64,000 nucleotides of DNA from Dehalococcoidia bacterium (GCA_050184225.1 JBFXAN010000006.1:1640-65639), one strand, 5' to 3'. Positions 12,490 to 54,740 are shown, counted from the stretch's first letter. Notes: generated by a model not told the origin, from the letters alone. A program made the numbers and translations.

Positions 12490-12655
12490 ACCCCTCCCCC
12501 GGCCCCTCCCCCCGCAGAGGCGCGGAGCGGGGAGCACTGGTCTGGGTGTGGTGCCAGCGTCGTCCCCGCGACAGTCTGGCTGTGAGACGGTCTACCGTGG
12601 CACCCCAGACCCGGCGAGGCACCCCTCTCCGCGCGTCAGCGGGGGGAGGGGTCCG
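12490..12655. repeat. Palindromic G/C-rich element, family B copy 1
   Basis: Termini are CCCCTCCCCCGGCCCCTCCCCCCGC..GCGGAGCGGGGAGC and the inverted complement ..GGGGGGAGGGGTCCG. This is the same architecture as 26059..26236. It fills the spacer between two gene ends exactly. Confidence 0.8.
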
Positions 12656-13846
12656 TCACACCGCCCCGTCCTCCCGCAACGTCGCAATCGCCTCAGTCGA
12701 GATTCCGAGCACCTCACGCAGCACATCGTCCGTGTGCTCACCGTGGCGCGGTGGCGCGCGGCGCGGCTCGATCGGTGTCTCCGAGAGATGGACTGCCGGC
12801 CCCACCACCTGGATCGACTCGGCCGTGGGATGGGGCAACGTCCGCAACAGACCAAGCGCCTGTACCTGGGGATCGGCCATCGCCTCCGGAACCGTGTTGA
12901 TCGGGCCGGCCGGCACACCGGCGTCGTTGAGCACCCGCAGCCACTCGTCGGCCGGACGTTCGGCGATCACCGCCGCAACCAGCGGAATCAGCACGTCCCG
13001 CTGGTCGAGCCGGTCGGTGTTGGTCGTGAAGCGCGGATCTTCGGCAAGTTCCGGCCGGCCGGCGACGGCGCAGAACGTGCGGAACTGGCGGTCGTTGCCA
13101 ACGGCGAGCGCCAGCGGACGGTCCGCCGCCTGGAACGCCTGATACGGCACGATATTGGGATGCGCATTGCCGAAGCGCTTCGGTGGCGCGCCGCTGACGA
13201 GATAGTTCTGGCCCACGTTGGCGAGCCAGGCGAGTGCGGACTCCAGCAGCGACACATCGACCCGCTGGCCGCGTCCTGTGTCACGCCGTGCATACAGCGC
13301 CGCCAGGATGCCATTGACCGCATTCAGTCCGGCGGTAACATCGACGATCGCGACGCCGACCTTCATCGGTTCACCTTCGGCGTCGCCCGTGATCGACATG
13401 ATCCCGGCCATCCCCTGGATAACGAAGTCGTAGCCGGGGTAGTCCTTGTACGGTCCGGTCGTGCCGAATCCCGTGATCGAGGCGTGGATCAGTCCGGGAT
13501 TGGCCTCCCAGAGCACCGCATCCGCCAGATTCATCCGCTCCAGCGTGCCCCGCTTGAAGTTCTCGATCAGCACATCCGACCGCCGCACCAGGTCGAGCAA
13601 CACCCGCCGCGCGCCCTCGTGCTTCAAATTGAGGGTGATGCCGCGCTTGTTGCGGTTCACCGACAGGTAGTAGGCGCTCTCGCCACCCGCCCAGGGCGGA
13701 CCCCACCCCCGCGTCTCATCGCCGTCGCCCGGCTACTCGACCTTGATCACGTCGGCGCCCATGTCGCCCAGCGTCATCGCCGCATACGGCCCGGCCAGCA
13801 CCCGCGAAAGATCGAGCACACGAATATCATGAAGCGGTCCAGTCAT
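12656..13846 (-). pseudogene. CoA-transferase family III (CaiB/BaiF) gene interrupted by in-frame TAG at codon 38
   Basis: Manual translation from ATG 13846: [74 protein letters not shown]. It runs in the same frame into track ORF 12656..13660. The TAG is at 13733..13735. Confidence 0.8.
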
Positions 13847-14167
13847 TAGTTGATCACCCCGAGTTGCTACAGACGGCCCAGACCGTTGACCTTAGGCCAC
13901 CATTGGACAATTCGCCAACAATCGCACCGAGAGATGTTGAGCCTCGTCCGGGAAACCTGCCGCCCGGTAGGGCTGATCCCCTGGACCTCACCGAGATGTG
14001 TGCCCCGTTGTTCGATAACGCACCACAATCGCACGCAGCATCTCGATATCCTCCACGGCTGGCATTCTACGCTATCCGCGAGGCTGGGCGGACTCGATGA
14101 TCGGGGCGGGTGACTCACCGGATATGCTGTAATTGCGAGGCAAGATTGCGGCCATCGGAGAGACGTC

Positions 14168-14479
14168 ATGAGCAAGGTGCGAAAGCATCTCTATCTCGAT
14201 GCCAAGCAAGAGCAGAAACTGCGCGAGTATGCCGCGCGCTGGGGGTGCAGCGAAGCCGGCGTGATGCGCGTCGCGTTGGACCGCTTGACGGACTTGGACC
14301 ATTCTGTCGTGTCGGGCACATGGGACCGGACGAGTCAGTTGGACGATGAGGCCGGGGAAGAGCCGTTGAGCGATCAAGCGTTGGCAGCGCTCGAAGCTGA
14401 GAGCGAGGCGTGGTTCCGCGAGCACCCACAACCGCTGGGCCTGTCCGAGGCTGTCTTCCTGGACCGTGAAGGCCGGTGA
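14168..14479 (+). CDS. vapB: Ribbon-helix-helix (CopG/VapB-like) antitoxin
   Basis: KHLYLDAKQEQKLREYAARWGCSEAGVMRVALDRL is an RHH fold signature. 4-nt overlap with the downstream PIN gene. Confidence 0.75.
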   Translation: MSKVRKHLYLDAKQEQKLREYAARWGCSEAGVMRVALDRLTDLDHSVVSGTWDRTSQLDDEAGEEPLSDQALAALEAESEAWFREHPQPLGLSEAVFLDREGR

Positions 14480-14925
14480 TTCTTTTCGTCGATACATCGG
14501 CATTGGTCCGCCGCTATGACCTCACCGAGCCGGGTTCGGATCAGGTACTTCGGCTCTGCCGTCCGGCGAACGGCCACGAAATTACGCTCCTGTCGATCAC
14601 CTCAGTCGAGGTTGCATCTGCGCTCCATAGAAAGTTGCGCGACGGTGCGATCGACCCGGCACAGCGCACGCGCATGTGGCGGCTATTCGTCGAGCATTGC
14701 CGCCGCCAGTATCGGTTCCTCACGCTCGATCAACCGATGTACCGACGGGCACAACGGCTTGTGGGCCGCCACACCCTTCGTGCGTACGACGCCTTGCAGC
14801 TCGCGGCTGCCTTGGAGTTTGCCCGGTCGTTGCCTCGCGTAACCGAATTCCGCTTCTGCACCGCCGATCGGCCGCAGGCGCGCGCCGCCGAAGGGGAAGG
14901 GCTGCTCGTCGAGATCATCTCCTAG
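14476..14925 (+). CDS. vapC: PIN-domain ribonuclease toxin
   Basis: MILFVDTSALVRRY (first acidic PIN residue), with later D/E residues ..LRAYDALQLAAA. Confidence 0.8.
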   Translation: MILFVDTSALVRRYDLTEPGSDQVLRLCRPANGHEITLLSITSVEVASALHRKLRDGAIDPAQRTRMWRLFVEHCRRQYRFLTLDQPMYRRAQRLVGRHTLRAYDALQLAAALEFARSLPRVTEFRFCTADRPQARAAEGEGLLVEIIS

Positions 14926-14945
14926 ACCGGGAGTGCCCCGCTCTC

Positions 14946-17135: not shown

Positions 17136-17278
17136 ATGCGCTCCAACGAACGATGTGGTGAGCTTTCGACCAAGCGTACATCCTTCGCACACATTGCCGG
17201 GACGCCCGTGCTGTGCTATGTTCCAGATACGGACCCATCGACGGGACCGTTATTGCCGTGTGCCGGCGCTCTTCACCT

Positions 17279-17353: not shown

Positions 17354-17424
17354 GCGCCGGCCGAGACATGAACAACGATCGCTGGGGCGGGTCACAGACC
17401 CGCCCTCGTCCACAATGGAGCTGC

Positions 17425-17759: not shown

Positions 17760-17768
17760 GAGCAGGCG

Positions 17769-20354
17769 ATGGCAGAGAAGTTCAATCCTCAAGAAACCGA
17801 CCGGAAATGGCAGCAGCGCTGGGAAGCGGACGGCCTCTACCGGACGCCGGACGACAGCGACAAGCCAAAGTACTACTTCCTGACGATGTACCCCTATCCG
17901 TCCGGCGACCTGCACACCGGCCACTGGTACGCGGAGGCGCCGGCCGACACCAAGGCGCGCTACCTGCGGATGCGCGGCTACAACGTCCTCTTCCCAATGG
18001 GCTTCGACGCCTTTGGCCTGCCCGCCGAGAATGCCGCCATCCGCAATAACATCCATCCGTTCCAGTGGACGATGGCCAACATCGACCGCATGCGCAACCA
18101 GTTCAAGAGCATGGGCGCGATGTTCGACTGGTCGCGCGAGGTGATCACCTGCCTGCCCGAATACTACACATGGAACCAGTGGTTCTTCCTCCAGTTCTAC
18201 AAGAAGGGCCTGGCCTACCGCGCCCGCGCCGCCGTGGACTTCTGCCCCAACTGCAACACGACGCTCGCCCGCGAGCAGGTCTGGGGCGAAGACCGCCGCT
18301 GCGAACGCTGCGGCACGCAGGTCGAAAAGCGCGACCTGGAGCAGTGGTTCTTCCGCATCACCGACTACGCGGACGAGTTGCTGCGCTTCGACGGCCTCGA
18401 CTGGCCCGACCGCGTCAAGACGATGCAGACCAACTGGATCGGCCGGTCCGAGGGCGCGGAGATCGCGTTCGTGATTGAACCTAACCCCCCGACCCCCTCC
18501 CCTCGCAGGGAAGGGGGAGTCCTGAGTGACGTTGGTGGGAATGATATCGCCATCCCACGAACAGACGAGCTACTGGCACCCTCGGTAGATGAGGACTCCC
18601 CTCCCCTGCGAGGGGAGGGGCCGGGGGAGAGGTCTGAAATCCGCGTCTTCACCACCAGACCGGACACGATCTACGGCGTCAGCTTCATGGTGCTGGCGCC
18701 CGAACATCCGCTGGTCGAACAACTGACAACGCCTGAGCAGGCCGAGGCCGTCCGAGAGTACATCGAGCAGGCACGGCGCGAGACGGAGATCGAGCGGACC
18801 GCCGCCGACAAGCCGAAGACCGGCGTCTTCACCGGCGCGTACTGCATCAATCCATACTCCGGCGAGCGGGTGCCGGTCTATGTCGGCGACTACGTGCTCT
18901 ACACCTACGGCACCGGCGCGGTGATGGGTGTGCCCGCGCACGACGAGCGGGACTTCGCCTTCGCCAAAACCTACAGCCTGCCGATCCCGGTGGTGATCGC
19001 GCCATCGGACTGGACCGGTGCGGAACTGGACTCGGCATATACCGAGCCAGGGACGATGGTCAACTCCGGTCCGTTCGACGGCACGCCAAGTGAGGAAGGC
19101 AAGAAACAGGTGATCGCCTACGGCGAGGAACGCGGCTTCGCCACGACGCGGGTGACCTATCGCATGCGCGACTGGCTGATCTCTCGTCAGCGCTATTGGG
19201 GCACGCCGATCCCGATCATCTACTGCCCCGTGGACGGCGTCGTGCCCGTGCCCGAGGAGGATCTGCCCGTCCTCTTGCCGGAGGACTCCGAGTTCCGTCC
19301 GACCGGCGAATCGCCGCTGAAGTATGACGAGCGATTCAAGAACGTGTCCTGCCCAACCTGTGGCGGTCCCGCCGAGCGCGAGACCGACACAATGGACACC
19401 TTCATGGACTCCTCCTGGTACCAGTACCGCTACCTCAGCCCGCACTTCGCCGAGGGGCCGTTCAACCCATCAAAGGCGGATTGGCTGCCGGTCGACCAGT
19501 ATACGGGCGGCATCGAGCACGCGACGATGCACCTGCTCTACTTCCGCTTTTTCACCAAGGCGATGCGCGATCTCGGACTGGTGACGATCGACGAGCCGGT
19601 GACGCGGCTGATCAATCAGGGCATCATCCTCGGTCCCGACAGCCAGAAGATGTCAAAGAGCCGGGGCAACGTCGTCAACCCTGATGATTATGTCGACAGT
19701 CTCGGTGCCGATGTCTTCCGCTGCTATCTGATGTTCATCGGCCCCTGGGAGGACGGCGGCCCCTACCGGCCTGAAGGGATCGAAGGCGTCACCCGCTGGC
19801 TGCATCGTGTCTGGAACCTGACGCTCGACGAGCCACGCTTCGCCGGCACGATCGACGCCGACGCCACCCGCGACCTCCAACGCCGACGGCACAAGACCGT
19901 GCGCGTCGTCTCCGAGGATCTGGAGAACTTCCGGTTCAACACGAAGCTCGCCCGGCTGATGGAGTACACGAACGAGCTCTCCCGCGTCAAAGACAGCGGC
20001 CGGATCGACCCCGCCGTCTGGAACGACGCCGTCGAGACGCTGCTGTTGATGACCGCGCCCGCCGCCCCCCACATCACCGAGGAGTTGTGGGAACGCACCG
20101 GCCGCCCCTACTCGGTCCACACCCAGGCATGGCCGTCCTTCGACCCGGCTCTGGCCGAAGACGAGCAACGAACCATCGTCGTGCAGATCAACGGCAAGGT
20201 CCGCGACCGCCTCTCCGTACCGGTCGACGCCACCCGCGAACAGGTCGAGGCAATGGCGATGGCGAGCGAAAAAGTCGCCGGCCAGATTGACGGCGCCACC
20301 GTGCGAAACGTGGTCTATGTGCCGGGACGGCTGGTCAATATCGTCGTTACCTAA
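17769..20354 (+). CDS. leuS: Leucyl-tRNA synthetase (carries an in-frame repeat-derived insertion)
   Basis: MAEKFNPQETDRKWQQRWE, YPSGDLHTGH (HIGH), VFTTRPDTIYG (CP1), KMSKSRGN (KMSKS). The ATG at 17769 was chosen downstream of the T-box terminator. Confidence 0.95.
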   Translation: MAEKFNPQETDRKWQQRWEADGLYRTPDDSDKPKYYFLTMYPYPSGDLHTGHWYAEAPADTKARYLRMRGYNVLFPMGFDAFGLPAENAAIRNNIHPFQWTMANIDRMRNQFKSMGAMFDWSREVITCLPEYYTWNQWFFLQFYKKGLAYRARAAVDFCPNCNTTLAREQVWGEDRRCERCGTQVEKRDLEQWFFRITDYADELLRFDGLDWPDRVKTMQTNWIGRSEGAEIAFVIEPNPPTPSPRREGGVLSDVGGNDIAIPRTDELLAPSVDEDSPPLRGEGPGERSEIRVFTTRPDTIYGVSFMVLAPEHPLVEQLTTPEQAEAVREYIEQARRETEIERTAADKPKTGVFTGAYCINPYSGERVPVYVGDYVLYTYGTGAVMGVPAHDERDFAFAKTYSLPIPVVIAPSDWTGAELDSAYTEPGTMVNSGPFDGTPSEEGKKQVIAYGEERGFATTRVTYRMRDWLISRQRYWGTPIPIIYCPVDGVVPVPEEDLPVLLPEDSEFRPTGESPLKYDERFKNVSCPTCGGPAERETDTMDTFMDSSWYQYRYLSPHFAEGPFNPSKADWLPVDQYTGGIEHATMHLLYFRFFTKAMRDLGLVTIDEPVTRLINQGIILGPDSQKMSKSRGNVVNPDDYVDSLGADVFRCYLMFIGPWEDGGPYRPEGIEGVTRWLHRVWNLTLDEPRFAGTIDADATRDLQRRRHKTVRVVSEDLENFRFNTKLARLMEYTNELSRVKDSGRIDPAVWNDAVETLLLMTAPAAPHITEELWERTGRPYSVHTQAWPSFDPALAEDEQRTIVVQINGKVRDRLSVPVDATREQVEAMAMASEKVAGQIDGATVRNVVYVPGRLVNIVVT
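18480..18633. repeat. Family A palindromic element copy 1, inside the leuS ORF
   Basis: CCTAACCCCCCGACCCCCTCCCCTCGCAGGGAAGGGGGAG..GAGCTACTGGCACCCTCGGTAGATGAG..CCCCTCCCCTGCGAGGGGAGGGGCCGGGGGAGAGGT. Same termini and core as the intergenic copies. Confidence 0.85.
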
Positions 20355-20503
20355 CCCCCCGGCCCCCTTCCCTGCGAGGGAAGGGGGTGCCTCATTCTAC
20401 CGAGGTGCCAGTAGCTCGTCGGGCGACACCGACGATCCTCGTTCCACCACGGTAAACCAGAACTCCCCCTTCCCTGCGAGGGAAGGGGGCCGGGGGGTTA
20501 GGT
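20350..20503. repeat. Family A palindromic element copy 2 (inverted orientation)
   Basis: Termini are CCTAACCCCCCGGCCCCCTTCCCTGCGAGGGAAGGGGG / CCCCCTTCCCTGCGAGGGAAGGGGGCCGGGGGGTTAGGT. The core is the reverse complement of copy 5. It contains the leuS stop TAA (20352..20354). Confidence 0.9.
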
Positions 20504-22068: not shown

Positions 22069-22075
22069 TTTTCTA

Positions 22076-22245
22076 CCTAACCCCCCGGCCCCCTTCCCTC
22101 GCAGGGAAGGGGGAGTCCTCGTCAACCAAGATGGAACGAGGATCGTCGGTATCGCCCAATGAGATACTGGCACCGTCGGTCGATGAGAATTCCCCCTTCC
22201 CTTGCAGGGAAGGGGGCGCTGTGAGCGCAGCGAACCGGGTTAGGT
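22076..22245. repeat. Family A palindromic element copy 3
   Basis: Left terminus is identical to copies 4 and 5. The right terminus carries a ~15-nt extra segment (GCTGTGAGCGCAGCGAA) before GGGTTAGGT. Confidence 0.85.
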
Positions 22246-26058: not shown

Positions 26059-26236
26059 ACCCCTCCCCCGGCCCCTCCCCCCGCCTGCGGCGCGGAGAGG
26101 GGAGCCTGACGTACCAGGATTACCAGCGTCACTTTCGCTATGGTCTGGCGATTGGCTGGTTGACGTTGGTAGACCCGTGCCGGTGAGGCTCCCCTCTCCG
26201 CGCCGCAGGCGGGGGGAGGGGCCGGGGGAGGGGTCC
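26059..26236. repeat. Palindromic G/C-rich element, family B copy 2
   Basis: ACCCCTCCCCCGGCCCCTCCCCCCGCCTGCGGCGCGGAGAGGGGAGCC ... GGCTCCCCTCTCCGCGCCGCAGGCGGGGGGAGGGGCCGGGGGAGGGGT. It fills the greA-lysS spacer. Confidence 0.9.
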
Positions 26237-27723: not shown

Positions 27724-27734
27724 GGGCGATTTTG

Positions 27735-27812
27735 AACCACAGAGACGCAGAGGCGTAGAGGTTTTCATGAGTTCGCCAAAACAAACCTCTGCGCCTCTGC
27801 GTCTCTGTGGTT
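27735..27812. repeat. Long perfect-ish hairpin (30-nt arms, 18-nt loop) after lysS; REP-like element / possible terminator
   Basis: AACCACAGAGACGCAGAGGCGTAGAGGTTT ... AAACCTCTGCGCCTCTGCGTCTCTGTGGTT, with 1 mismatch. There is no clear T-tract. Confidence 0.7.
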
Positions 27813-27833
27813 TAACTCCGATGATGTGTATCG

Positions 27834-29202: not shown

Positions 29203-29206
29203 CCAA

Positions 29207-29361
29207 CCTAACCCCCCGGCCCCCTTCCCTCGCAGGGAAGGGGGAGTCCTGGTCTGCCATGGTGGAACAAGTCTCGTTGGTGCTTCCAGACGAAATACTG
29301 GCACCATCGGTTGCAGCGTACTCCCCCTTCCCTGCGAGGGAAGGGGGCCGGGGGGTTAGGT
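29207..29361. repeat. Family A palindromic element copy 4
   Basis: Both termini are intact (CCTAACCCCCCGGCCCCCTTCCCTCGCAGGGAAGGGGGAG / CCCCCTTCCCTGCGAGGGAAGGGGGCCGGGGGGTTAGGT). The core contains ATACTGGCACCATCGGTTG. Confidence 0.9.
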
Positions 29362-30517: not shown

Positions 30518-30691
30518 GCCGGCCCTCACCCCCGACCCCTCTCCCGCCGAGCGGGAGAGGGGAGCCTGATCGGTGCGGTGCTTCCAGTATCGACACCGGC
30601 TCTACCAGACGAAGGCATGGGCTGGTAGGAACGATCTGCTGAGGCTCCCCTCTCCCGCTCCGGCGGGAGAGGGGCCGGGGGTGAGGGCCGG
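30518..30691. repeat. Palindromic G/C-rich element, family C copy 1
   Basis: GCCCTCACCCCCGACCCCTCTCCCGCCGAGCGGGAGAGGGGAGCC ... GGCTCCCCTCTCCCGCTCCGGCGGGAGAGGGGCCGGGGGTGAGGGC. It fills the spacer between convergent stop codons. Confidence 0.9.
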
Positions 30692-31664: not shown

Positions 31665-33320
31665 ATGACCAGCCTCGCCGAACCGACGCCGATCGCGACA
31701 CCCGAGGATTTCCCCGTCGATTGGGATGACCCATCCGACGCCGCGCTGCATTGGACCTGGGACCAGATGCATACCCCGCGCCCGATCTGCCCGCTGGGGC
31801 GTGACCTGATGCCGTTCGCTTTTGCTACGGGCATGACGGCGGGGTTCCGCGAAAGCGGCGCACCGATCAAGGAACGGCGCCTGCGGTTTGTGAACACATT
31901 CCTCTACGCGGCCATGATCCCGGACCTTGCGTTGCTGCCGGATACACCCGCCCGCATGCAGTCGATCGTGGCCGAGCGCGGCCCCGACATGTACCAGCGA
32001 TGGCTCGATGTCTATCTGCCCGAGGTCCAGGCCACCAACGAGCGGCTCCGTTCGTACGCCTACACCGCCGCGGGCGACACCGAGCTGCGCGCGTTCATTG
32101 ACGAAACGCTACCGGCGCTGGCGCGCATGTGGGAGATCCATTTCCTGTTGATGCCGGGCTTCATGATCTCGGCCGGGTTCAAGAACTTCTGCGCGCACCG
32201 GCTGGGCCTGACCGCGCTGGAAGCATTCGAGATGATGCAGGGGGCGCCCAACATGTCGGTCGAGTCCGGCAGCACCCTCTGGCGGCTCGCGCACGGTGCG
32301 CCGGCCAGCGTCCAGGACATGATCGCCACGCAGAGCGCCGATGATGCTCTCGCGTACCTACGAGAGACAGCCGAGGGACGCGCCTTCCTCGCGGCGCTGG
32401 CCGAATATCTCGCGGTCTATGGCTGGCGCAAAGGGCACTTCGACGTGATCGGACCGGCCTGGGCCGAGGCGCCGGCGCTGGCGCTCGATCAGGTGCGGCT
32501 GTTGCTGCGCGCCCCGACCGACCCGGCCGAGGACCAGCAGCGCGGCGCAGAGCGGGCCGAGCAGGCGGCGGCGGCCTGCCGGCAGCGGCTCGCCGACGAC
32601 CCGGCGGCGCTGGCCGAGTTCGATGCGCTCTATCAGATAGTCAAGCGCTATCCACAGCTCCAGGAGAACCACAACTTCTACATCGACCAGACCTTCATGG
32701 CGTTGCTGCGCCTGCCGTTCCTCGAGGCGGGGCGGCGGATGGCGGCGCGGGGACAGATCGACGACGCCGAGGAGTACGCCTACCTGCGCCTCGACGAGAT
32801 CCGCGACGCGCTGGGCGGCGATACCACACCGCATCACGACGCCGTCGCCGAGCGGCGGACGGAGATGGAACGCTGGCAGTCATATCTGCCGCCCCAGGCG
32901 ATCGGCACGCCGCCGCCGGCCGGGGCCGCCTCGGACTTCGAGTCCGACTTCTTCGGCGCGCCGGTGGAACCATCCCGCGACCCACGGGTGGTCCAGGGGC
33001 TGCCCGGCTCGCGCGGGGTGGCGACCGGCGTCGCGCGCGTCGTGCGCACGCTCACCGAGGCCGACCAGATCGAGGAGGGCGACATTCTCGTCTGCGAGAT
33101 GACGACACCAGCCTGGACACCCCTGTTCGCTGGTCTGGCCGGTATCGTCGCCGATTCCGGCGGCCCGCTCTCCCACTGCGCGATCGTTGCCCGCGAGTTC
33201 GACATTCCTGCCGTAGTGGGCACGCGGCTCGGTACGCGCCTGATTCCCGACGGCGCCCGGATCACGATCGACGGTGGCCAGGGGGTCGTTCGCATCGAAT
33301 CTTACCCCACCTCGCCGTGA
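31665..33320 (+). CDS. PEP-utilising-enzyme mobile-domain protein (phosphotransferase of PEP synthase / rifampicin phosphotransferase type, no ATP-grasp seen)
   Basis: C-terminal GSRGVATGVARVV..GDILVCEMTTPAWTPLFAGLAGIVADSGGPLSHCAIVAREFDIPAVVG (swivelling His domain). The start is uncertain (31566 or 31665). The track ORF from 30903 overlaps the SDR gene antisense. Confidence 0.7.
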   Translation: MTSLAEPTPIATPEDFPVDWDDPSDAALHWTWDQMHTPRPICPLGRDLMPFAFATGMTAGFRESGAPIKERRLRFVNTFLYAAMIPDLALLPDTPARMQSIVAERGPDMYQRWLDVYLPEVQATNERLRSYAYTAAGDTELRAFIDETLPALARMWEIHFLLMPGFMISAGFKNFCAHRLGLTALEAFEMMQGAPNMSVESGSTLWRLAHGAPASVQDMIATQSADDALAYLRETAEGRAFLAALAEYLAVYGWRKGHFDVIGPAWAEAPALALDQVRLLLRAPTDPAEDQQRGAERAEQAAAACRQRLADDPAALAEFDALYQIVKRYPQLQENHNFYIDQTFMALLRLPFLEAGRRMAARGQIDDAEEYAYLRLDEIRDALGGDTTPHHDAVAERRTEMERWQSYLPPQAIGTPPPAGAASDFESDFFGAPVEPSRDPRVVQGLPGSRGVATGVARVVRTLTEADQIEEGDILVCEMTTPAWTPLFAGLAGIVADSGGPLSHCAIVAREFDIPAVVGTRLGTRLIPDGARITIDGGQGVVRIESYPTSP

Positions 33321-33333
33321 GGAGACCCGAATG

Positions 33334-33408
33334 TGTCATCCTGAGCGACAGCGAAGGATCTCGGAGGTTACGTACGTCCGAGATCCTTCGCTGTCGCTCA
33401 GGATGACA
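33334..33408. repeat. Family D palindrome (TGTCATCCTGAGCG..GAAGGATCTCGG core), copy 1
   Basis: TGTCATCCTGAGCGACAGCGAAGGATCTCGGA-loop-TCCGAGATCCTTCGCTGTCGCTCAGGATGACA. The flanks (about 33310..33440) are also similar to copy 2. Confidence 0.9.
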
Positions 33409-33476
33409 CAACCCGATCCACTCACGGAGCGTTGGCATGAGGTGGTGACACGGGCGCGAAGTATCCGGCCGCGACC

Positions 33477-37241: not shown

Positions 37242-39692
37242 ATGATGCGACAGGATAGGTTCACCGAGCAGGCCCGCGAGGCACTCGCGGCATCGCAGGA
37301 ATTGGTCCGGCAACAGCGGCACAGCCAGTGGGACGTGGAGCACGTCCTCCTCGCCCTCGTCGACCTTCAGGGCGGCCTCGCCCAGGAGATCCTGAAACGG
37401 CTCGACGTGCCCGTCGACCAGCTTCGCCGCCGGATCGCCGAGAGCCTGAATCAGACGCCGAAGCTCGCCTACGACGTGGTCCAGATCTACACCACGCCGC
37501 GGATCGTCCGGTTGCTGGAAAACGCCGACGCCGAAGCGAACCGTCTCAAGGACGAATACATCGGCGTCGAGCACCTGCTGATCGCGATCGCCGACGAGCG
37601 CGAGGGCGACGCCGCAACCGCCCTGCGTGACCTCGGCATCGACAAGGAGCGCATTTATCGCGCCCTCTCCGAGGTGCGGGGCAAGGCGCGGGTCGACGAC
37701 CCCCGCGCCGAGTCGCGCTATCAGGCGCTGGCCAAGTACTCGACCGACCTCACCGCAATGGCGGCGTCCGGCAAGCTCGATCCCGTGATCGGGCGTGAGG
37801 ACGAGGTGAAGCGCGTCATGCAGATCCTCAACCGCCGTCAGAAGAACAACCCGGTGATCATCGGCGAGGCGGGCGTCGGTAAGACGGCGATCGTCGAGGG
37901 GCTCGCCCAGGCGATCGTCGCCGATGACGTGCCGGAGAACCTGCGCGGCAAGCGGCTCGTCGCGCTCGACGTCGGCGCCCTCGTCGCCGGCTCGAAGTTC
38001 CGCGGCGAGTTCGAAGAGCGCCTCCAGGCGATCATGCGCGAGGTGCGCAAGGCCGCCGGTGAGGTGATCCTCTTCATCGACGAGCTGCACCAGGTCGTCG
38101 GCGCCGGCGGCGCCGATGGCGCGATCGACGCCAGCACGATGATGAAACCGGCGCTGGCCCGCGGCGAGCTGCGCGCGATCGGCGCGACGACGCTCGACGA
38201 GTACCGTCGCTATATCGAGAAGGACCCAGCACTGGAGCGCCGCTTTGCCCCGGTGTATGTGGACGAGCCGAGCGTCGAGGAGACGATCGCGATCCTGCAC
38301 GGCCTGCGGCCCCGCTACGAGGCGCACCACGATGTCACGATCACCGATGCCGCGCTCGACGCGGCGGCCAAGCTCTCCGACCGCTACATCACCGAACGCT
38401 TCCTGCCGGACAAGGCGATCGACCTGATCGACGAGTCGGCCTCGAAGCACGTGATCGAGGCGCAGAGCCTGACGCCGGCAATGCGCGGTCTGCGGAAGCG
38501 GCTCGACGCACTCAGCGCCGAGATGGACGCCGCTGCCGGCCGCGAGGACTACGAGGCGGCGGCGCGGGTCAAGCAGGAAGTGCTCACGCTGCAGGAGGAG
38601 TGGAACGCGGCCAAGGCCGCTCGCCAGGCCGAGCGCGGTGAGGGCGACGAGGAGATCGTCACCGAGCAGGACATCGCCTCCCTGGTCGCATCGATCACCG
38701 GCATCCCGATCGACCGGATGCTCGAGGGCGAAGCAGAGAAGCTCCTCCAGATGGAGGAGCGGCTGCACGACCGCGTCATTGGTCAGGAGGCGGCGATCGA
38801 GGCGCTCTCCGACGCGATCCGCCGGGCACGCGCCGGCCTGAAGGACCCCCGCCGCCCGATCGGCAGCTTCATCTTCCTCGGCCCCACCGGCGTCGGCAAG
38901 ACGGAGCTGGCGAAGGCGCTGGCCGAGCTGATGTTCGACGACGAGGACGCGATCGTGCGGCTCGACATGAGCGAGTACCAGGAGCGGCACACCGTCTCCC
39001 GCCTGATCGGCGCGCCTCCCGGCTACGTCGGCTACGACGAGGGCGGCGGTCTCACCGAGGCGGTGCGGCGGCGGCCGTATCGGGTGATCCTCTTCGACGA
39101 GATCGAAAAGGCGCACCCCGACGTCTTCAACACACTGCTCCAGATTCTGGAGGACGGCCGGCTGACCGACGGCCAGGGCCACACGGTCGACTTCCGCAAC
39201 ACCGTCGTCATCATGACGAGTAACCTCGGCACCGGCGACCGCGGCAAGTCGATCGGCCTGACGTTAGGCAAGCGGACGGAGAGCACCGCCGACCGGCAGA
39301 AGCTGGAGGAGAACGTGCTGCGGGCGCTGCGCGACCACTTCCGGCCGGAGTTCCTCAACCGGATCGACGAGATCATCGTCTTCGAGCCGCTCACCGAGCG
39401 GGAACTGGCCCAGATCGTCGACCTGATGGTCGAGGAAGTGCGGGAGCGCCTGGAGGAGCGGGGCGTGACGCTGACGTTGACCGCCGCCGCCAAAGACGCA
39501 CTCGTTCGCGAAGGCTACGACCCGACCTACGGCGCCCGCCCGCTGCGCCGCGTGATCCAGCGGCAGGTGGAGAACCAGGTCTCCAAGCGCCTGCTCGCCG
39601 GCGAGTTCGGCGAAGGCGACACCGTCCACGTCGACCATACGCCGGACGGCTACACCTTCACCAAGGTCGAGCCGGCGACCGCCGCGGCGTAA
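37242..39692 (+). CDS. clpB: ATP-dependent chaperone ClpB
   Basis: Clp N repeats, two AAA+ modules ([15 protein letters not shown] and [15 protein letters not shown]), and a long middle coiled coil. 816 aa from ATG 37242. Confidence 0.95.
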
Positions 39693-41146: not shown

Positions 41147-41259
41147 CGCCCGCCCGTTGCGCCACGTGATCCAGCGGCAGGTGGAGAACCAGGTCTCCAA
41201 GCGCCTGCTCGCCGGCGAGTTCGGCGAGGGCGACACCGTCCATGCCGACCACACCCCGG
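41147..41259 (+). pseudogene. Duplicated fragment of the clpB 3' end
   Basis: 113 nt align without gaps to clpB 39533..39645, with about 7 mismatches by eye. It encodes [28 protein letters not shown] versus clp[29 protein letters not shown]. Confidence 0.85.
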
Positions 41260-42653: not shown

Positions 42654-43865
42654 ATGGGCATTCGCCGCATGAAATTCGGTATCTTCCTGGCGCCGTTCCA
42701 CCGCGTGGGCGAGAATCCGACGCTCGCCCTGGCGCGTGACATGGAGCTGATCCAGTGGCTCGACCACCTCGGTTATGACGAGGCGTGGATCGGCGAACAT
42801 CACTCCGCCGGCTGGGAGACGATCGCCGATCCGGCGGTCTTCATCGCGGCCGCGGCCGAACGGACCAAGTACATCAAGCTCGGCGCCGGCGTCGTCAGCC
42901 TCCCCTACCACCATCCGCTGATGGTGGCGGAGCGGTTCGTCCAGCTCGACCACATGACCCGTGGCCGCTCGATGCTCGGCGTTGGACCCGGCGCGCTCGT
43001 CTCCGACGCCTACATGATGGGCATCGAGCCGGTGACACAGCGGCAGCGGATGGATGAATCGCTCGGCGCGATCATATCGCTGCTCCGTTGCGAAGAGCCG
43101 GTGACGATGAAGACGGACTGGTTCGAGCTGCGCGAGGCGCGGCTGCATCTCGCGCCGTTCTCCGAGCCGCGCTTCGAGATCGCCGCCGCCAGCCAGATTA
43201 CCCCCGCCGGCATGGTCACGGCGGGCAAGTACGGCGTCGGCGTACTCTCGCTCGGCGCTGGTCTGCCCGGCGGCGCCGACGCGCTCGCCAACCACTGGCA
43301 GATCGCCGAAGACGCCGCCGCCGAGGCGGGCCACACGATGAATCGAAAAGAGTGGCGGCTCGTGGCGCCGGTCCATGTCGCCGAGGACCGCGAACAGGCG
43401 CTGCACGATGTCCGGCAGGGCGAGCGGGCGCACACGCTCTCCTACTTCCAGGAGACGCTCGGCCGTCCGCCCGGCCGCGACTCCGAAGACCCGCTGCGCG
43501 AGGGCGTCGAGGCCGGCACTACCCTCGTCGGATCGCCGGAGGATGTCACGCGCGGGATCGAACGGCTGGTGGAGATGAGCAAGGGCGGCTTCGGCGGTCT
43601 GCTCTTCATGGCGCACGAATGGGCCAACCGCGAGGCAACGCTGCGCAGCTTCGAGCTCTTCGCCCGCTACGTCATGCCTCGCTTCCAAGGCCAGATCGAC
43701 ACCCTGCACAACTCCCGCGAGTGGGTCGCCAGCAACAAGAAGACGATCTTCGGCCCCAACGCCGCCGCGATCGCCAAGGCCTTCTCCGATGCGGGCAGAG
43801 AAATGCCGGAGGTACTCGCGGGAAGGTTCAAGCCAAACCCCTCCCCCGACCCCTCCCCCCGCTGA
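42654..43865 (+). CDS. LLM-class (luciferase-like) flavin-dependent monooxygenase
   Basis: MKFGIFLAPFH..LGYDEAWIGEHHS. RBS GGGAGGGG. The last ~9 codons (PNPSPDPSPR) and the TGA stop lie in a family B repeat arm. Confidence 0.85.
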   Translation: MGIRRMKFGIFLAPFHRVGENPTLALARDMELIQWLDHLGYDEAWIGEHHSAGWETIADPAVFIAAAAERTKYIKLGAGVVSLPYHHPLMVAERFVQLDHMTRGRSMLGVGPGALVSDAYMMGIEPVTQRQRMDESLGAIISLLRCEEPVTMKTDWFELREARLHLAPFSEPRFEIAAASQITPAGMVTAGKYGVGVLSLGAGLPGGADALANHWQIAEDAAAEAGHTMNRKEWRLVAPVHVAEDREQALHDVRQGERAHTLSYFQETLGRPPGRDSEDPLREGVEAGTTLVGSPEDVTRGIERLVEMSKGGFGGLLFMAHEWANREATLRSFELFARYVMPRFQGQIDTLHNSREWVASNKKTIFGPNAAAIAKAFSDAGREMPEVLAGRFKPNPSPDPSPR

Positions 43866-44068
43866 CGCGCGGAGCGAGGAGTCTTTACCTAACCCCCCGG
43901 CCCCCTTCCCTCGCAGGGAAGGGGGAGTTCTGGTTTACCGTGGTGGAACGAGGATCGTCGCTGTTCCCACACGAGCTACTGGCACCCTCGGTTGATGAGT
44001 GCACCCCCTTCCCTGCGAGGGAAGGGGGCCGGGGGGTTAGGTAAATCCGGGCCGGGGGAGGGGTCCGC
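43837..44068. repeat. Family B element remnant (copy 3) split by a nested family A copy
   Basis: The left arm ACCCCTCCCCCGACCCCTCCCCCCGCTGACGCGCGGAGCGAGGAGTC and the right end CCGGGCCGGGGGAGGGGTCCG flank 43888..44043. Confidence 0.65.
43888..44043. repeat. Family A palindromic element copy 5
   Basis: Both termini are intact. The core is GAGCTACTGGCACCCTCGGTTGATGAG. Confidence 0.9.
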
Positions 44069-45994: not shown

Positions 45995-46086
45995 CCCAAT
46001 CACGACTGAGCAGTCGCCGCGCCGTGGCGAGAGGCATCCCACAGAAACCGTTTGTTATACCGCCTCGCGGTGAGGAAACCCGGATT

Positions 46087-46162
46087 TGTCATCCTGAGCG
46101 ACAGCGAAGGATCTCGGACATTATCAGACCACCGAGATCCTTCGCTGTCGCTCAGGATGACA
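46087..46162. repeat. Family D palindrome, copy 2
   Basis: TGTCATCCTGAGCGACAGCGAAGGATCTCGGA-loop-CCGAGATCCTTCGCTGTCGCTCAGGATGACA. The flanks are similar to copy 1. Confidence 0.9.
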
Positions 46163-46193
46163 TACAACCCGATCTACTCAAGGAGAGTTGGTA

Positions 46194-49768: not shown

Positions 49769-49773
49769 TTCAC

Positions 49774-49829: not shown

Positions 49830-49851
49830 GGCTCCCCGAAAGGACCCCACC

Positions 49852-50499: not shown

Positions 50500-50511
50500 C
50501 ACATCAGACCA

Positions 50512-51381: not shown

Positions 51382-51406
51382 TGATTCAGGGCGCGGTCGA
51401 TTGTGA

Positions 51407-51706
51407 CTAACCGCGGAAGGGAGGCAGTAACCTGCTCCCATGAACAACCGTGAGAACTCGAACGATATCTTGATCGCGGAAGTAGCGATAGATCACACGG
51501 TACGGGACGACGATTACCTCACGATAGCTCACGTCGTTATACTCCGGAACAATCCGTCCGATCTCGGGATATCTGGCTAATCGCCTGCCCTCGTTGCGAA
51601 TGCGTCGTACGATCGCGGCAGCAGCAGCGGGAGAGTCCCGAGCAATATACTCCTATATGTCCAGAACATCATCTTGCGCGGTTTGTTCCCACTTTACTTG
51701 AGCCAC
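51407..51706 (-). pseudogene. ParE/RelE-family toxin gene with premature TAG at codon 18
   Basis: Manual translation from GTG 51706: MAQVKWEQTAQDDVLDI*EYIARDSPAAAAAIVRRIRNEGRRLARYPEIGRIVPEYNDVSYREVIVVPYRVIYRYFRDQDIVRVLTVVHGSRLLP. The TAG is at 51653..51655. The start overlaps the antitoxin stop. Confidence 0.75.
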
Positions 51707-51873
51707 TCGTCAGTGAGCCTTTCGAACTCCTCTTGAGTGACCTCGCGGCCGGCCGCAACATCTGCATCACCCATCTCAATCTTCCTGCGAATGTACAGCG
51801 TGTAGATCAGTTTCTGGATGTCAATCTCTTCCGGCATGTCACGGATAAGTTCTATGACGTCGGCCTTCTTCAC
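51694..51873 (-). CDS. Small antitoxin-like protein coupled to the ParE-like ORF
   Basis: GTG 51873: (M)KKADVIELIRDMPEEIDIQKLIYTLYIRRKIEMGDADVAAGREVTQEEFERLTDEWLK. The track ORF extension to 52044 has non-coding-like composition. Confidence 0.6.
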   Translation of the reverse strand: MKKADVIELIRDMPEEIDIQKLIYTLYIRRKIEMGDADVAAGREVTQEEFERLTDEWLK

Positions 51874-51889
51874 CTGCCGCTCCGCGTCA

Positions 51890-52183
51890 TTACTGCTGCT
51901 TTTCGTCGGGGTTGAGCCGCCGCGCCAACCGGCTGCGCTCCGCATCGACGGTGTCGACGAAGTCGTCCAACCAATCGGCAAACGTCTCTTCGTCGAGGGG
52001 AAGCTCGGCCGGCCCCGCCGTCGCTGCCCGCTCCGGATACGCATCCTCGAGCCGCGAGCGCATGTACGACCAGATCGTCAGCGCGTTCGCCAGCACACCC
52101 ATCGCGGTGACCCGACGAAGCACGTCGCTCGGTGTGTAGACGATGATCGGCGGCTGCTCCACCGCGCAAGTGTAGCAGCCCAC
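51890..52183 (-). CDS. Hypothetical protein (97 aa)
   Basis: Strong GC3 bias and a GTG start. ..PLDEETFADWLDDFVDTVDAERSRLARRL. Confidence 0.45.
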   Translation of the reverse strand: MGCYTCAVEQPPIIVYTPSDVLRRVTAMGVLANALTIWSYMRSRLEDAYPERAATAGPAELPLDEETFADWLDDFVDTVDAERSRLARRLNPDEKQQ

Positions 52184-52222
52184 ACTCTCTCGACCGCATC
52201 ACGCGATCGGTCACCCCACCCC

Positions 52223-52420
52223 CGCCTGGGAGCGCGGGCATCTGTGCCCAATGCCGTTTAGTTAAGCGATTCCAGCGACGCCGCCACGGGTGCACCGCCC
52301 GTCCCTACCCCGGCGTCTGGATTCGCGCGGTCACCACGGTCCTCGCGCAACCGGTCCGTCGCAGACTCGTCAGTTCCTTAACTAAACGGCATTGGGCAGG
52401 GATGCCCGCGCTCCCAGGCG
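52223..52420. repeat. Family E element: 44-nt inverted repeats separated by about 110 nt
   Basis: CGCCTGGGAGCGCGGGCATCTGTGCCCAATGCCGTTTAGTTAAG (52223..52266) versus CTTAACTAAACGGCATTGGGCAGGGATGCCCGCGCTCCCAGGCG (52377..52420), with 3 mismatches. Confidence 0.8.
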
Positions 52421-52442
52421 ACGATAGCCGCAACGATGAAAA

Positions 52443-54740
52443 CTAGATCAGGGTCACGGGATCGACATCGACAATCCAGCCTCGCCGCAGGCTGATGGCG
52501 GTGAGCAGCGTGGACGGGTCATGGCCGCGGAGCACGATCTGCCAGCGCCAGCGCCCCTTCACCCGCGCGTGGAAGGCCGGCGCCGATCCGAGGATGTCCA
52601 GGTTGGCCAGCCCATGGACGCGCTGCACCTCGCGCAACTCTTCCCCGAGGCGGCGCGCCTCCTCCTCCGCGTAAGCCGCGCTCGTGTGCGCGAAGAGCAG
52701 CCGCGCCAGCCGGCCGAACGGCGGATACCCCGCCTCGCGCCGGACGCAGATCTCCGCCTCGTACATCGCCTCGTAGTCGTGCGCCGCCGTTGCCCGAATC
52801 GCGTAGTGCTCCGGCGTGTACGTCTGGATGATCACACGCCCCGGCTTCTCCCCGCGTCCGGTCCGCCCCGCGACCTGGGTGAGCAACTGGTACGCCCGCT
52901 CGCCGCTGCGATAGTCGGGCATGTGCAGCGCGATGTCGGCGCTGACCACCCCGACCAGCGTCACGTTCGGCAGGTCGTGGCCTTTGGCCAGCATCTGCGT
53001 CCCGACGACCACATCCGCCTCGCCCCCGGCCAGCGCCGCATAGATGGCGGCATGCTCCTCCGCACTCCGCACCGCATCCCGGTCCCAGCGCAACACCCGC
53101 GCCTCCGGGAACCGCGACCGCACATCCGCCTCCACCCGCTGCGTCCCGAGCCCGAAGAGTCGCAGCCGCGTGCCACCGCACACGGGACAGTTCCCCGGCA
53201 TCCGCCGCTGGCGGTTGCACTGATGACACCGCAAACGCTCGCCGGCCCCATGCACGGTAAACGGCACGTTGCAGCCGGAGCACTGCGGCACATATCCGCA
53301 GTCCCGACAGAGGACAAAGCTCGCCGTCCCCCGCCGGTTCAGCAACAGCAGCGCCTGCTCACCACGCGCCAGCGTCTCCGCCAGCGCCGCATCGAGCGCT
53401 CGGCTGAAGATCCCCCGATTGCCTTCCCGCAGCTCGCGCGCGAGATCGACGATCTCGATGTCGGGGAGCGAACCGGAACGACCCTCACCCCCCGGCCCCC
53501 GCTCCCAATGCTGGGAGAGGGGGCGATTCTCCGTGGCGGCGGTTGAGTTAGGCTCCCCTCTCCCAGCATTGGGAGCGGGGGCGGGGGTGAGGGCCGCCCC
53601 CACCCGCTCCCGCATCTCCAACATCTGATAGTGCCCCGCCTTCGCCCGCGCATACGACACAACATCCGGCGTCGCGCTGCCCAGCACGACACCGGCGCCC
53701 GTCAACTGGGCGAGCCGAATCGCCACGTCGCGGGCGTGATAGCGCGGTTCGCTGTCGTGGTGCTTGTAGGTCCACTCGTGCTCTTCGTCGATCACGATCA
53801 GGCCGAGGTTCGGTTGCGGCGCGAACAGGGCGCTGCGGGCGCCGACGACGACGGGATAGCGGCCGGCGCGGATCGCGTGCCAGGTGCGCTCTCGTTCCCC
53901 GCCGGTGATGCCGCTGTGGATCACGGCGACACCGCCCGGAAAGCGCCGCCGGAACCGATCGACGATCTGCGGCGTCAGCGCGATCTCCGGCACGAGCACA
54001 ATGCCCCGCCGCCCGGCGGCCACCGTTCGCTCCAGCGCGGAAAGATAAACCTCGGTCTTACCGCTGCCGGTCACGCCATGCAGCAGGAAGACGGGCGGAC
54101 GGGAACCATCCGGCGGTGTCTTGACCTCGCCGGTGTCGATCGCCGCAACGGCCTCCCGCTGCGCTTCGGTGAGTCGCGGCGGTACGACCGGCCGGCTGGT
54201 GACCGGCGGCGTCTCGATCCGTGGCACGGCGAACGCCAGCCGCTCGCTGACAAGTCCCGCCCGCCGTAGATCAGCCAGCAGCGCGCCCGTGTCGGCCCGA
54301 AATGACCGGCGCAACCGGACGACATCGACCTCACCCATCTCACGGACGAGGCTCAGCATCTTCGCCTCGCGTTCTTCGAGTCCGTCAGGCGCTTCCACGT
54401 TGGTCGGAGACACCAGCACACGGAGACGCTTGTCAAATCCGGGCGGCAGCATCAAGGAGACACACGGGTAGAGGGGCGCCAGGTAGCGACGGCTCAACCA
54501 GTGGGCAAGCGCGATCTGGTGCTCGGACAGCAGCACCTCGGCCGCCGCGAGCAGGTGGCGGGTTTCACCGGTATACGTGGGCTGATCGCCAACCTCGAGG
54601 ACAACGCCCGCGAGCGTGTGCCGTCCGAACGGCACGAGTACGCCGCTGCCCGGCAATACCTGCATACCGGAAGGAACCGCATAGCTGAACGCCTGGCGGT
54701 AGGGGATCTCCGTATGAACCGCCACCTCGGCGTAGGCCAC
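52443..54740 (-). CDS. priA: Primosomal protein N' (replication restart helicase PriA), with an in-frame repeat-derived insertion
   Basis: LLHGVTGSGKTEVYL (Walker A), IVIDEEHE (DEAH-like), and the Cys-rich zinc region CRDCGYVPQCSGCNVPFTVH..LRCHQCN..CPVCGG. Confidence 0.95.
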   Translation of the reverse strand: MAYAEVAVHTEIPYRQAFSYAVPSGMQVLPGSGVLVPFGRHTLAGVVLEVGDQPTYTGETRHLLAAAEVLLSEHQIALAHWLSRRYLAPLYPCVSLMLPPGFDKRLRVLVSPTNVEAPDGLEEREAKMLSLVREMGEVDVVRLRRSFRADTGALLADLRRAGLVSERLAFAVPRIETPPVTSRPVVPPRLTEAQREAVAAIDTGEVKTPPDGSRPPVFLLHGVTGSGKTEVYLSALERTVAAGRRGIVLVPEIALTPQIVDRFRRRFPGGVAVIHSGITGGERERTWHAIRAGRYPVVVGARSALFAPQPNLGLIVIDEEHEWTYKHHDSEPRYHARDVAIRLAQLTGAGVVLGSATPDVVSYARAKAGHYQMLEMRERVGAALTPAPAPNAGRGEPNSTAATENRPLSQHWERGPGGEGRSGSLPDIEIVDLARELREGNRGIFSRALDAALAETLARGEQALLLLNRRGTASFVLCRDCGYVPQCSGCNVPFTVHGAGERLRCHQCNRQRRMPGNCPVCGGTRLRLFGLGTQRVEADVRSRFPEARVLRWDRDAVRSAEEHAAIYAALAGGEADVVVGTQMLAKGHDLPNVTLVGVVSADIALHMPDYRSGERAYQLLTQVAGRTGRGEKPGRVIIQTYTPEHYAIRATAAHDYEAMYEAEICVRREAGYPPFGRLARLLFAHTSAAYAEEEARRLGEELREVQRVHGLANLDILGSAPAFHARVKGRWRWQIVLRGHDPSTLLTAISLRRGWIVDVDPVTLI
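53481..53594. repeat. Family C palindromic element copy 2, inside the priA ORF
   Basis: ACCCTCACCCCCCGGCCCCCGCTCCCAATGCTGGGAGAGGGGG ... GGCTCCCCTCTCCCAGCATTGGGAGCGGGGGCGGGGGTGAGGGC. On the coding strand it is read as ..PAPAPNAGRGEPNSTAATENRPLSQHWERGPGGEGRSGS.. Confidence 0.8.

Follow-up and report, generated by a model that had tools for sequence, protein, structure and literature searches.

What are the G/C-rich palindromic elements that recur ten times within a single 64-kb stretch of a Dehalococcoidia genome, and by what are they spread? The stretch (GCA_050184225.1 JBFXAN010000006.1:1640-65639; 64,000 nucleotides, called the window here, with positions counted from its first letter) lies on contig C6 of a Chloroflexota metagenome-assembled genome (MAG) of 6.83 Mb in 304 contigs, with 65.5% G+C and 92% completeness; judged by relatives of its leucyl-tRNA synthetase, it belongs to Chloroflexota, with MAGs of the class Dehalococcoidia nearest. 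In the reading that we prefer, to which we give a probability of roughly 0.5, the elements are non-autonomous inverted doublets of a short module of the BoxC/PIT/TM repeat design, and this module would be the recognition site of a DUF559 nuclease, with nicking and repair copying the elements to new sites.

An examination of the window without database searches (the sequence-only reading) had listed ten copies in three families, A, B and C. All ten were found again at their places by repeat finding, an inverted-repeat scan (arms of 30-60 nt, 80-100% complementary) and profile searches (nhmmer E-values of 1e-7 to 1e-45); together they make up about 1.5 kb or 2.3% of the window, close to the 2% estimated before. 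One architecture is indeed common to all families, and the profile search agreed that the core of the copy at 20349 is reversed relative to the other A copies. The features are as follows:

12490..12652, + strand: family B element with terminus ACCCCTCCCCCGG, imperfect hairpin, core and mirrored hairpin (E 6.6e-32), flanked by minus-strand genes, one with its stop at 12656 and one with its start near 12480
18479..18633, + strand: chimeric element, A left module and B2-type right module (...CCGGGGGAGAGGT) (E 1.7e-29)
20349..20503, - strand: family A element, inverted core (E 2e-37)
22075..22245, + strand: family A element (E 6.4e-33)
26059..26234, + strand: complete family B element, 52-nt arms 98% complementary (E 7.9e-42)
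29206..29361, + strand: complete family A element, 42-nt arms 100% complementary (E 1.5e-45), the reference copy of the census
30520..30690, + strand: complete family C element (E 9.2e-44)
43837..43881, + strand: left module (terminus and hairpin) of an interrupted family B element (E 1.5e-7)
43887..44042, + strand: complete family A element, nested in the B-element remnant (E 3.7e-42)
44053..44064, + strand: right G-rich terminus (CGGGGGAGGGGT), leftover of the interrupted B element
53481..53594, + strand: short family C element, 114 nt or 38 codons, two modules with a 32-nt centre

The family labels A, B and C were recovered in register, but the copy at 18480, taken for a family A element before, is a chimera, family A on the left and B2-type on the right, and the supposed B copy at 43837 is the left module of a B element into which the A copy at 43887 has cut, taking the place of part of it. 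Two further copies depart from the layout of terminus, hairpin, core, hairpin and terminus: the element at 12490 is without the right G-rich terminus, and the right arm of 22075-22245 carries an extra 18-nt hairpin (CGCTGTGAGCGCAGCGAA) between its hairpin and the G-rich terminus. This extra hairpin (window 22218-22236; 18-20 nt, GGTTCGCT(A/G)CGCTCACAGCG) sits exactly at the terminus/hairpin junction and is found in an A subfamily with 18 copies in the genome; on contig C141, one C element has a similar junction hairpin. The extra hairpin would be either a mini-insert nested in these copies or a marker of the subfamily.

An iterated nhmmer census of the genome yielded 430 non-overlapping loci on most contigs (A 160, B 118 and C 152), covering 55.6 kb or 0.81% of the DNA, and a degenerate terminus-plus-hairpin pattern gave 442 genome matches compared to 2 when the same pattern was read backwards. 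The sequence-only reading had proposed such a whole-genome scan and would have been refuted had these been the only copies; with 430 loci genome-wide a local duplication is excluded and the family is dispersed. Because the repeats fragment this assembly, in which many contigs have an A, B or C element no more than about 100 nt from their start or end, these copy numbers are lower bounds. The copies occur as full doublets of 155-178 nt, T-H-T' minis of about 58 nt and partial copies, the full element being an inverted doublet of a module of roughly 41-48 nt (C-rich terminus plus local hairpin) around a diverged core. Four discrete families were resolved:

Family A: C-rich terminus ACCTAACCCCCCGG, hairpin CCCCCTTCCCT-CGC-AGGGAAGGGGG
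Family B: C-rich terminus ACCCCTCCCCCGG, imperfect hairpin CCCCTCCCCCCGC-TGAC-GCGCGGAGAGGGG
Family B2: C-rich terminus ACCTCTCCCCCGG, hairpin CCCCTCCCCT-CGC-AGGGGAGGGG
Family C: C-rich terminus GGCCCTCACCCCCGR, hairpin CCCCTCTCCCG-loop-CGGGAGAGGGG

Among A termini with a recognised hairpin type, 195 of 196 carry the A type (10 further hairpins are unclassified), and among C termini 171 of 172 carry the C type (23 further hairpins unclassified). This contingency table rules out a free shuffling of termini and hairpins, and the word "modular" used before overstated the matter: the two types are almost strictly linked, with a few chimeric elements (e.g., the window copy 18479). Arms are far better conserved than cores in families A, B and C (identity of 93% vs 61% in A, 87% vs 55% in B and 82% vs 48% in C). 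The median identity of a core to its nearest neighbour is 74-81%, and a twin of at least 95% identity exists for 13 of 185 full copies; the copies are old and their arms are kept nonetheless.

The sequence-only reading had left two folds open, one long hairpin or a three-way structure with local hairpins. Most copies contain perfect hairpins of 10-13 bp. Of 50 family C elements, 47 have unlike loops in their left and right hairpins (e.g., CCGAGC on the left and CTCCGG on the right in 30520-30690, which fills the spacer of two convergent genes), and the stems of one element often differ in base pairs, each hairpin being locally perfect. In the 45 distinct family C hairpins, 96.3% of cells are paired and 20 cells show double changes, compared to 5.9 +/- 1.8 in shuffles (0 of 500 shuffles as high), with exchanges U:A<->G:C and C:G<->U:A at two positions. 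Covariation, suggested before as a check, is thus present in the local hairpins of family C. Unlike hairpins that are each locally perfect, together with covariation, indicate that the conserved fold is the local hairpin: the three-way structure fits, as the family C hairpins vary independently with local pairing kept, and one long hairpin as the selected fold is disfavoured for this family. Searches of Rfam returned the tRNA alone at the gathering threshold and, at an E-value threshold, spurious matches to miRNA-precursor hairpins alone, far under their cut-offs. A structured RNA or hammerhead in the core, suggested by GATGAG- and CGAAA-like strings in some A cores, was rejected: the strings are not conserved, there is no Rfam match and orientation is unbiased.

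On the strand that ends G-rich, the module begins with a pyrimidine arm, which is joined by a loop to a purine arm; after a linker of 3 nt comes a G-rich segment, the mirror image of the purine arm. One DNA strand could therefore fold as a hairpin plus a third strand, and the doublet could offer one such fold per strand around a drifting core. The mirror scores under the G·G:C and A/T·A:T rules are 0.91 (A), 0.90 (B2), 1.00 (C) and 0.77 (B). Of 455 perfect pyrimidine-rich hairpins in the genome, 267 have on one side a third strand that is at least 90% compatible, compared to 10 with the flank read backwards, and the linker is 3 nt long in 239 of these 267. That certain termini go with certain hairpins follows from this mirroring of the purine arm.

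The same arrangement is found in the TMECO repeats, which Holder et al. (2015, PMC4666352) define by the consensus CCCTCNCCC-N3-6-GGGNGAGGG-N3-GGGNGAGGG as intrastrand triplexes of the class II purine motif; triplex folding in vitro is reported there, and the class can also be traced to Hoyne et al. 2000, as cited in that paper. The exact TMECO consensus has 1 match in our genome and none in the window, and a relaxed form has 335; the design is therefore shared, the E. coli sequence family is not. A BLAST search with a C element against E. coli genomes gave no match at that database size. Judged by these features, the elements are very probably dispersed repeats of the triplex-motif design. 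Knowledge of the BoxC/PIT/TM repeats goes back to the 1990s; to our knowledge, neither their origin nor a partner gene nor the way in which they spread has been established.

The survey of other genomes shows that the module is the unit and that it also stands alone in relatives. G006, the genome of a relative from another genus, has more than 100 copies of the 41-nt family A module, 93-98% identical to the A arms, as singlets or in tandem and without a core. The module pattern was detected in 48 of 301 sampled genomes of the class and in 32 of 151 of the phylum (reversed controls near zero), even in an AT-rich genome, and copy number differs 10- to 400-fold among related genomes. In a BLAST search of plasmids, matches to the C-type module came from Cupriavidus, Sulfitobacter, Enterobacter, Vitreoscilla and a number of cyanobacteria.

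A plasmid match under the name "DUF559 domain-containing protein" and the DUF559 locus of a relative, in which the gene is directly followed by a C-type mini element (twice), led us to search the genome for PF04480. The single match (C67:2905-3303, E 4.7e-31) lies inside a split family A element, forming a unit of 656 nt (C67:2728-3383) that aligns to the A consensus at 2-63 on the left (55/62) and at 104-157 on the right (52/54); the gene stands where about 40 nt of the centre would be. The sequence-only reading had noted neither this nested gene nor the triplex-repeat design of the module. With an E of 5e-16, the protein is similar to PDB 3HRL ("endonuclease-like protein"), and it retains the VDF...VEVDG..H (D...E-x-D...H) motif of the Vsr-like fold. 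We know of no activity established for DUF559.

For comparison, 40 DUF559 loci were collected from 28 other Chloroflexota genomes. A C-rich hairpin lies within 130 nt of the DUF559 domain in 33 of the 40 (on both sides in 20), and the density of such hairpins is 6.5 per kb beside DUF559, 1.3 further out and 0.09 genome-wide in our genome. Mirror modules number 44 beside the DUF559 genes of relatives vs 2 in the control, and many of them read literally GGGAGAGGG-TTA-GGGTGAGGG, which fits the published TMECO consensus. The hairpins upstream and downstream of a given gene belong to one variant, variants differ between loci, and two bracket geometries occur, one with the terminus outermost (as in our genome) and one with the terminus adjacent to the gene. 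In the DUF559 tree, one clade (97/93 support) holds our protein and every gene with true A-type hairpin flanks; it spans four named taxonomic families (f1, f8, f33 and f34). Hairpin labels cluster on the tree (19 changes vs 24.2 in shuffles, 0 of 200 as low). By analogy with RAYT genes and REP sequences (see below), such clade-matched bracketing is what one would expect if a gene and a repeat are cognate; it does not by itself identify the mover. The co-occurrence of DUF559 with a strict module pattern across 40 genomes was uninformative, because module variants differ between genomes.

We propose that the module is recognised by the small DUF559 nuclease (Vsr-like PD-(D/E)XK fold), which would nick folded modules, and that recombination-dependent repair would then copy elements to new sites and homogenise the arms of old copies; spread would be homing-like and copy-based, not a cut-and-paste transposition. 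The chance that DUF559 acts on the modules at all is, in our estimate, slightly better than even; that it is also what spreads them we put forward tentatively, as a possibility with the odds against it.

Several observations weigh against this proposal. The copies are old (median nearest core identity of 74-81%, a twin of at least 95% for 13 of 185), a single DUF559 gene is set against 430 elements, no partner gene for families B, B2 and C is present in this assembly, and neither a cut site nor a target duplication was seen. The exact TMECO consensus is matched just once in our genome, and the E. coli genome BLAST was empty. Across genomes, no DUF559 match was obtained in three with modules (G006 with 107, G361 with 56 and G017 with 11), and several genomes with DUF559 are without strict-pattern modules. 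These mismatches are weak either way, because MAGs may lose short repeat-flanked contigs and the pattern misses variants; module-rich MAGs without DUF559 could be an assembly artefact, as repeat-flanked units of 0.5 kb make short contigs.

The DUF559 gene could also be a selfish passenger that homes into such modules, with spread and upkeep due to host replication and repair at structure-induced polymerase stalls or to another enzyme. For this, the main rival, speak the three module-carrying genomes without a DUF559 match, the single gene per 430 elements with none for families B and C, the position of our gene mid-way in an otherwise ordinary A element, as insertion into a pre-existing element would give, and the report of no transposase or integrase near the E. 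coli TMECO copies (Holder et al., PMC4666352). The recurrence of two bracket geometries, the matching of both flanks within a locus and a hairpin type that follows the DUF559 clade across five taxonomic families are harder to reconcile with it, and we consider it possible but rather unlikely. Since even a pure passenger would need to recognise modules, a functional link remains.

The sequence-only reading had likened the elements to MITEs (miniature transposable elements with inverted repeats) or REP (repetitive extragenic palindromic) sequences. Classical MITEs would be deletion derivatives of an insertion sequence (IS) with a DDE transposase, moved via their terminal inverted repeats, perhaps into a TA target. 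Terminal inverted repeats are present, 155-178 nt is a typical MITE size and family A is most often flanked by T...A, which is indistinguishable from an extension of the inverted repeat. No direct target duplication, however, was found beside 150 full-length copies, and a scan of module pairs at distances of 250-5000 nt in this 92%-complete, fragmented assembly gave no IS that carries their ends (ACCTAACCCC.../GGCCCTCACCCC...). The scan between facing modules at these distances met ordinary genes and one ISAs1-type IS, the sole intermodule transposase; the sole longer unit with A ends is the one that encodes DUF559, not a known transposase. The ISAs1-type IS (C184:4056-5467, 383-aa transposase, ends AGGGCATACGCATCTT...) is inserted at the terminus/hairpin junction of a C element, with CCCC(C)GGCCCC duplicated on both sides. 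As it has its own, different ends and the module-pair scan gave no other candidate, a DDE IS parent was rejected. Single modules without a partner end are, moreover, the common form in relatives, and terminal inverted repeats bound by a protein would leave the local hairpin covariation and the mirror design unexplained. As neither a target duplication nor an IS sharing these ends was found, we do not class the elements as classical MITEs, an origin to which we attach a very small probability.

An equally small probability goes to a REP system, including REPINs (inverted REP doublets), moved by a REP-associated tyrosine transposase (RAYT, of the Y1 HUH type). Inverted doublets of a palindromic unit dispersed at gene ends would suit it, stop-supplying termini and copies in open reading frames (ORFs) are reported for REPs too (PMC3733652; PMC3116915), and the genome has one RAYT-like gene. 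A search for PF01797 (Y1 transposase) gave two hits, however: an IS605 TnpA/TnpB pair without A/B/C modules and the RAYT-like gene on C219, which has a different palindrome, CCTGGGAGCGCGGCCATCCTGGCCGC (184 seed matches), on both sides. Seven other genomes of the taxonomic family gave no Y1_Tnp hit, though five of them carry 14-107 modules. The termini (ACCTAACCCCCCGG, ACCCCTCCCCCGG, ACCTCTCCCCCGG and GGCCCTCACCCCCGR) bear no GTAG or CGTC tag. A sole RAYT gene flanked by another repeat and module-rich relatives without Y1 led us to reject a RAYT as the mobiliser, and the elements are therefore not classical REP/RAYT repeats either. The earlier label, non-autonomous and MITE/REP-like in behaviour, stands, without either classical identity; the checks proposed with it gave no orientation bias, no target duplication and no cognate Y1 transposase.

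The C219 gene and its repeat constitute a classical REPIN/RAYT system that coexists with the A/B/C elements. This second, unrelated repeat (arms CGCCTGGGAGCGCGGGCATC..., seed CCTGGGAGCGCGG, 184 genome matches) has a window copy at 52223-52420 and brackets the RAYT gene at C219:1-1100. An integron origin (attC/IntI) was also rejected: the ends of family A fit the attC consensus RYYYAAC/GTTRRRY by eye, those of B and C do not; the best TIGR02249 match scored 78.9 bits against a cut-off of 265, so that no integron integrase was found; and the copies sit among housekeeping genes in both orientations, unlike arrays of integron cassettes.

Could the elements instead be kept by the host? They might be gene-end elements selected as transcript-end hairpins, mRNA stabilisers, modulators of translation termination or protein-binding sites, their mobility being ancient or irrelevant. 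Their position was examined with genes called by a purpose-made codon-usage caller (6511 genes). Full-length intergenic copies lie in 107 tandem, 41 convergent and 25 divergent spacers. Where an element end faces the 3' end of a gene, its median distance to the stop codon is 6 nt, 127 of 189 such ends falling between -10 and +10 nt, and in 22 family A copies the stop is supplied by the element's own ACC-TAA-CC. In the window, the leuS stop codon is the TAA at 20352-20354, inside the A element 20349-20503, the stop of the convergent gene lies 5 nt past the other end of this element, and the B element 26059-26234 begins 3 nt past a TAA stop. Stop-donating termini, copies inside ORFs and orphan families without a transposase are known for REPs (PMC3733652). 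When a convergent spacer holds an element, just 15 nt of it are other DNA, vs 77 nt in empty convergent spacers. The closeness to stop codons and these short remainders, arms far better conserved than cores in every copy and modules kept across genera would all agree with host selection. It is at odds with the lack of a U-tract, the 25 full copies in divergent spacers and about 25-30 inside coding regions, and the 10- to 400-fold copy-number differences among related genomes; PIT elements, too, had no promoter or terminator activity in E. coli according to the summary in PMC4666352. A mirror third strand would have no role in an RNA hairpin, as purine-motif triplexes are not formed by RNA (as stated in PMC4666352). 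Core orientation relative to transcription shows no significant bias (A 25:14, B 20:22 and C 16:10). Triplexes restricted to DNA together with unbiased orientation favour a role at the DNA level over one in RNA, and we regard host-selected elements as improbable.

The elements had been said to saturate the intergenic spacers, but not all copies are intergenic: 18480 and 53481 lie in frame inside leuS and priA, and of 34 loci within long ORFs about 25-30 are in frame inside real genes. The translated inserts are stereotyped Pro/Gly/Arg-rich peptides (e.g., ..LTPRPPSLAGKGE.., ..LTPPAPLPSQGRGE.. and ..ALTPDPSPAERERG..) in otherwise normal proteins. In leuS of the window, the element 18479-18633 adds about 51 residues between the catalytic and editing domains; this insert is absent from six of seven relatives, the seventh (L050) having a shorter one in the same loop. 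In that relative, a Dehalococcoidia MAG with the closest leucyl-tRNA synthetase (LeuRS; 74% identical), the insert (L050:3160-3240) comprises 27 residues, and its DNA ends ...CGCGGGGTGAGGAC, resembling a decayed C-type terminus. The element 53481-53594 adds 38 codons to priA (minus strand). Judged by the Pfam domains that flank the insert or are split by it, other inserts separate the catalytic from the editing domain in a second LeuRS-like protein and the catalytic from the anticodon-binding domain in ValRS, lie within the activation domain of MetH and split the MurT_C domain at profile position 76, and a P-type ATPase and MutS have inserts with Pfam domains on both sides or split.

Two CoA-transferase III paralogues (C127 and C41) are both split at Pfam profile position 236, both by family C inserts, and a third (C22) has a family B insert in the same place by its translation; the site lies after ..HG(V/I)Y.. 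and before ..WIAIA..; either one site was hit repeatedly or a single loop is permissive. Stop-free elements on C30, C141 and C204 run neighbouring genes together into one ORF each (a pair of CoA-transferases twice, a siroheme-synthase-like gene and hemL once), which may be real fusions or annotation traps. The positions of the copies show that they survive just after or as stop codons, and in two stop-free frames of tolerant protein loops.

The window also contains repeats of other kinds. A third palindromic family (33307-33435, 46055-46170 and 56011-56159; arms TGTCATCCTGAGCGACAGCGAAGGATCTCGG) has a seed, GTCATCCTGAGCGA, with 101 genome matches and about 250 BLAST hits. A fourth palindrome at 27732-27815 (TTGAACCACAGAGACGCAGAGGCGTAGAGGTTT with its complement) has 36 seed matches in the genome, and at 62795-62906 tandem GGGCAAT heptamers face ATTGCCC heptamers in a palindrome directly after a gene ending at 62796. 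A direct repeat of 113 nt (39533-39645 and 41147-41259; 94% identical, 1614 nt apart) is unrelated to the palindromic families.

The same module design thus occurs across Chloroflexota and can bloom to about 430 copies, organised as inverted doublets, the elements can enter the reading frames of essential genes without destroying them, and the module is tied physically and phylogenetically to one small nuclease family. The elements also mislead annotation, as they extend and fuse ORFs, donate stops, add inserts of 38-60 residues and break assemblies. The module class and its REP-like behaviour (stop donation, ORF copies and orphan families) are already known. In the literature searched, we found no paper linking DUF559 to palindromic repeats and none on such repeats in Chloroflexi; nor did we find the occurrence in Chloroflexota, the doublet organisation with family-specific cores, the scale of in-frame insertion or the nesting and co-variation of DUF559. 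It is conceivable, though on present evidence doubtful, that DUF559 (YcjD-like, Vsr-fold) nucleases are dedicated partners of BoxC/PIT/TM repeats in general and that the Chloroflexota doublets represent a REPIN-like bloom of them. If true, this would be a second, independent bacterial partnership of nuclease and repeat, analogous to RAYT and REPIN, in which the nuclease reads a folded single strand (hairpin plus third strand) and drives copy-based spread and arm homogenisation, short Pro/Gly-rich inserts being seeded into dozens of essential proteins as a side effect.

How do these elements compare with known systems? The Rickettsia palindromic elements (RPEs), reportedly described by Ogata and co-workers in 2000, and other in-frame MITEs are said to be palindromic repeats that lie in frame in housekeeping genes and are retained in the ORF, and we know of no transposase for them. 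RPEs are AT-rich and without a hairpin-plus-mirror-strand module. In-frame palindromic inserts kept in the ORF are shared with our elements, no sequence relation to RPEs is expected, and the inserts here differ in encoding Pro/Gly/Arg-rich peptides.

REPs and REPINs likewise consist of a short palindromic unit with a non-palindromic tag, in hundreds of copies at gene ends (PMC3116915; PMC3733652), and the likeness extends to singlets (as in G006) and inverted doublets (155-178 nt in our genome) with a spacer, to stop-donating termini and some copies in ORFs (PMC3733652; PMC3116915), and to a single-copy gene bracketed by repeats, with the gene clade matching the repeat type. Here, however, the tag is a mirror third strand instead of GTAG/CGTC, the bracketed gene encodes a PD-(D/E)XK (Vsr-like) DUF559 nuclease instead of an HUH Y1 transposase, and the spacers are far more diverged than the arms, whereas REPINs replicate as whole units.

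Among nucleases, the Vsr-like (EDxHD) homing endonucleases, e.g., I-Bth0305I, reside in introns or inteins and cut the intron-less allele (PMC3239194). They offer a small Vsr-fold nuclease that acts as a selfish element and a precedent for nuclease-initiated, repair-mediated copying; the DUF559 gene, in contrast, is free-standing between folded repeats.

Closest are the BoxC/PIT/TM repeats, which have the same C-rich arm, loop, G-rich arm, 3-nt linker and second G-rich segment mirroring the first, and which, like our elements, are G/C-rich, mostly intergenic, present in tens to hundreds of copies with a patchy copy number among related genomes, and without a transposase or integrase nearby. 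The elements described here differ in their stems of 10-13 triplets with other interruptions (TT/AA in family A), in their Chloroflexota host (the TMECO count in PMC4666352 concerns Proteobacteria, with G/C-rich motifs also in Cyanobacteria), in a REPIN-like organisation as inverted doublets around a conserved core, which we did not find described for that class, and in dozens of copies translated in frame, with a DUF559 gene nested in one element.

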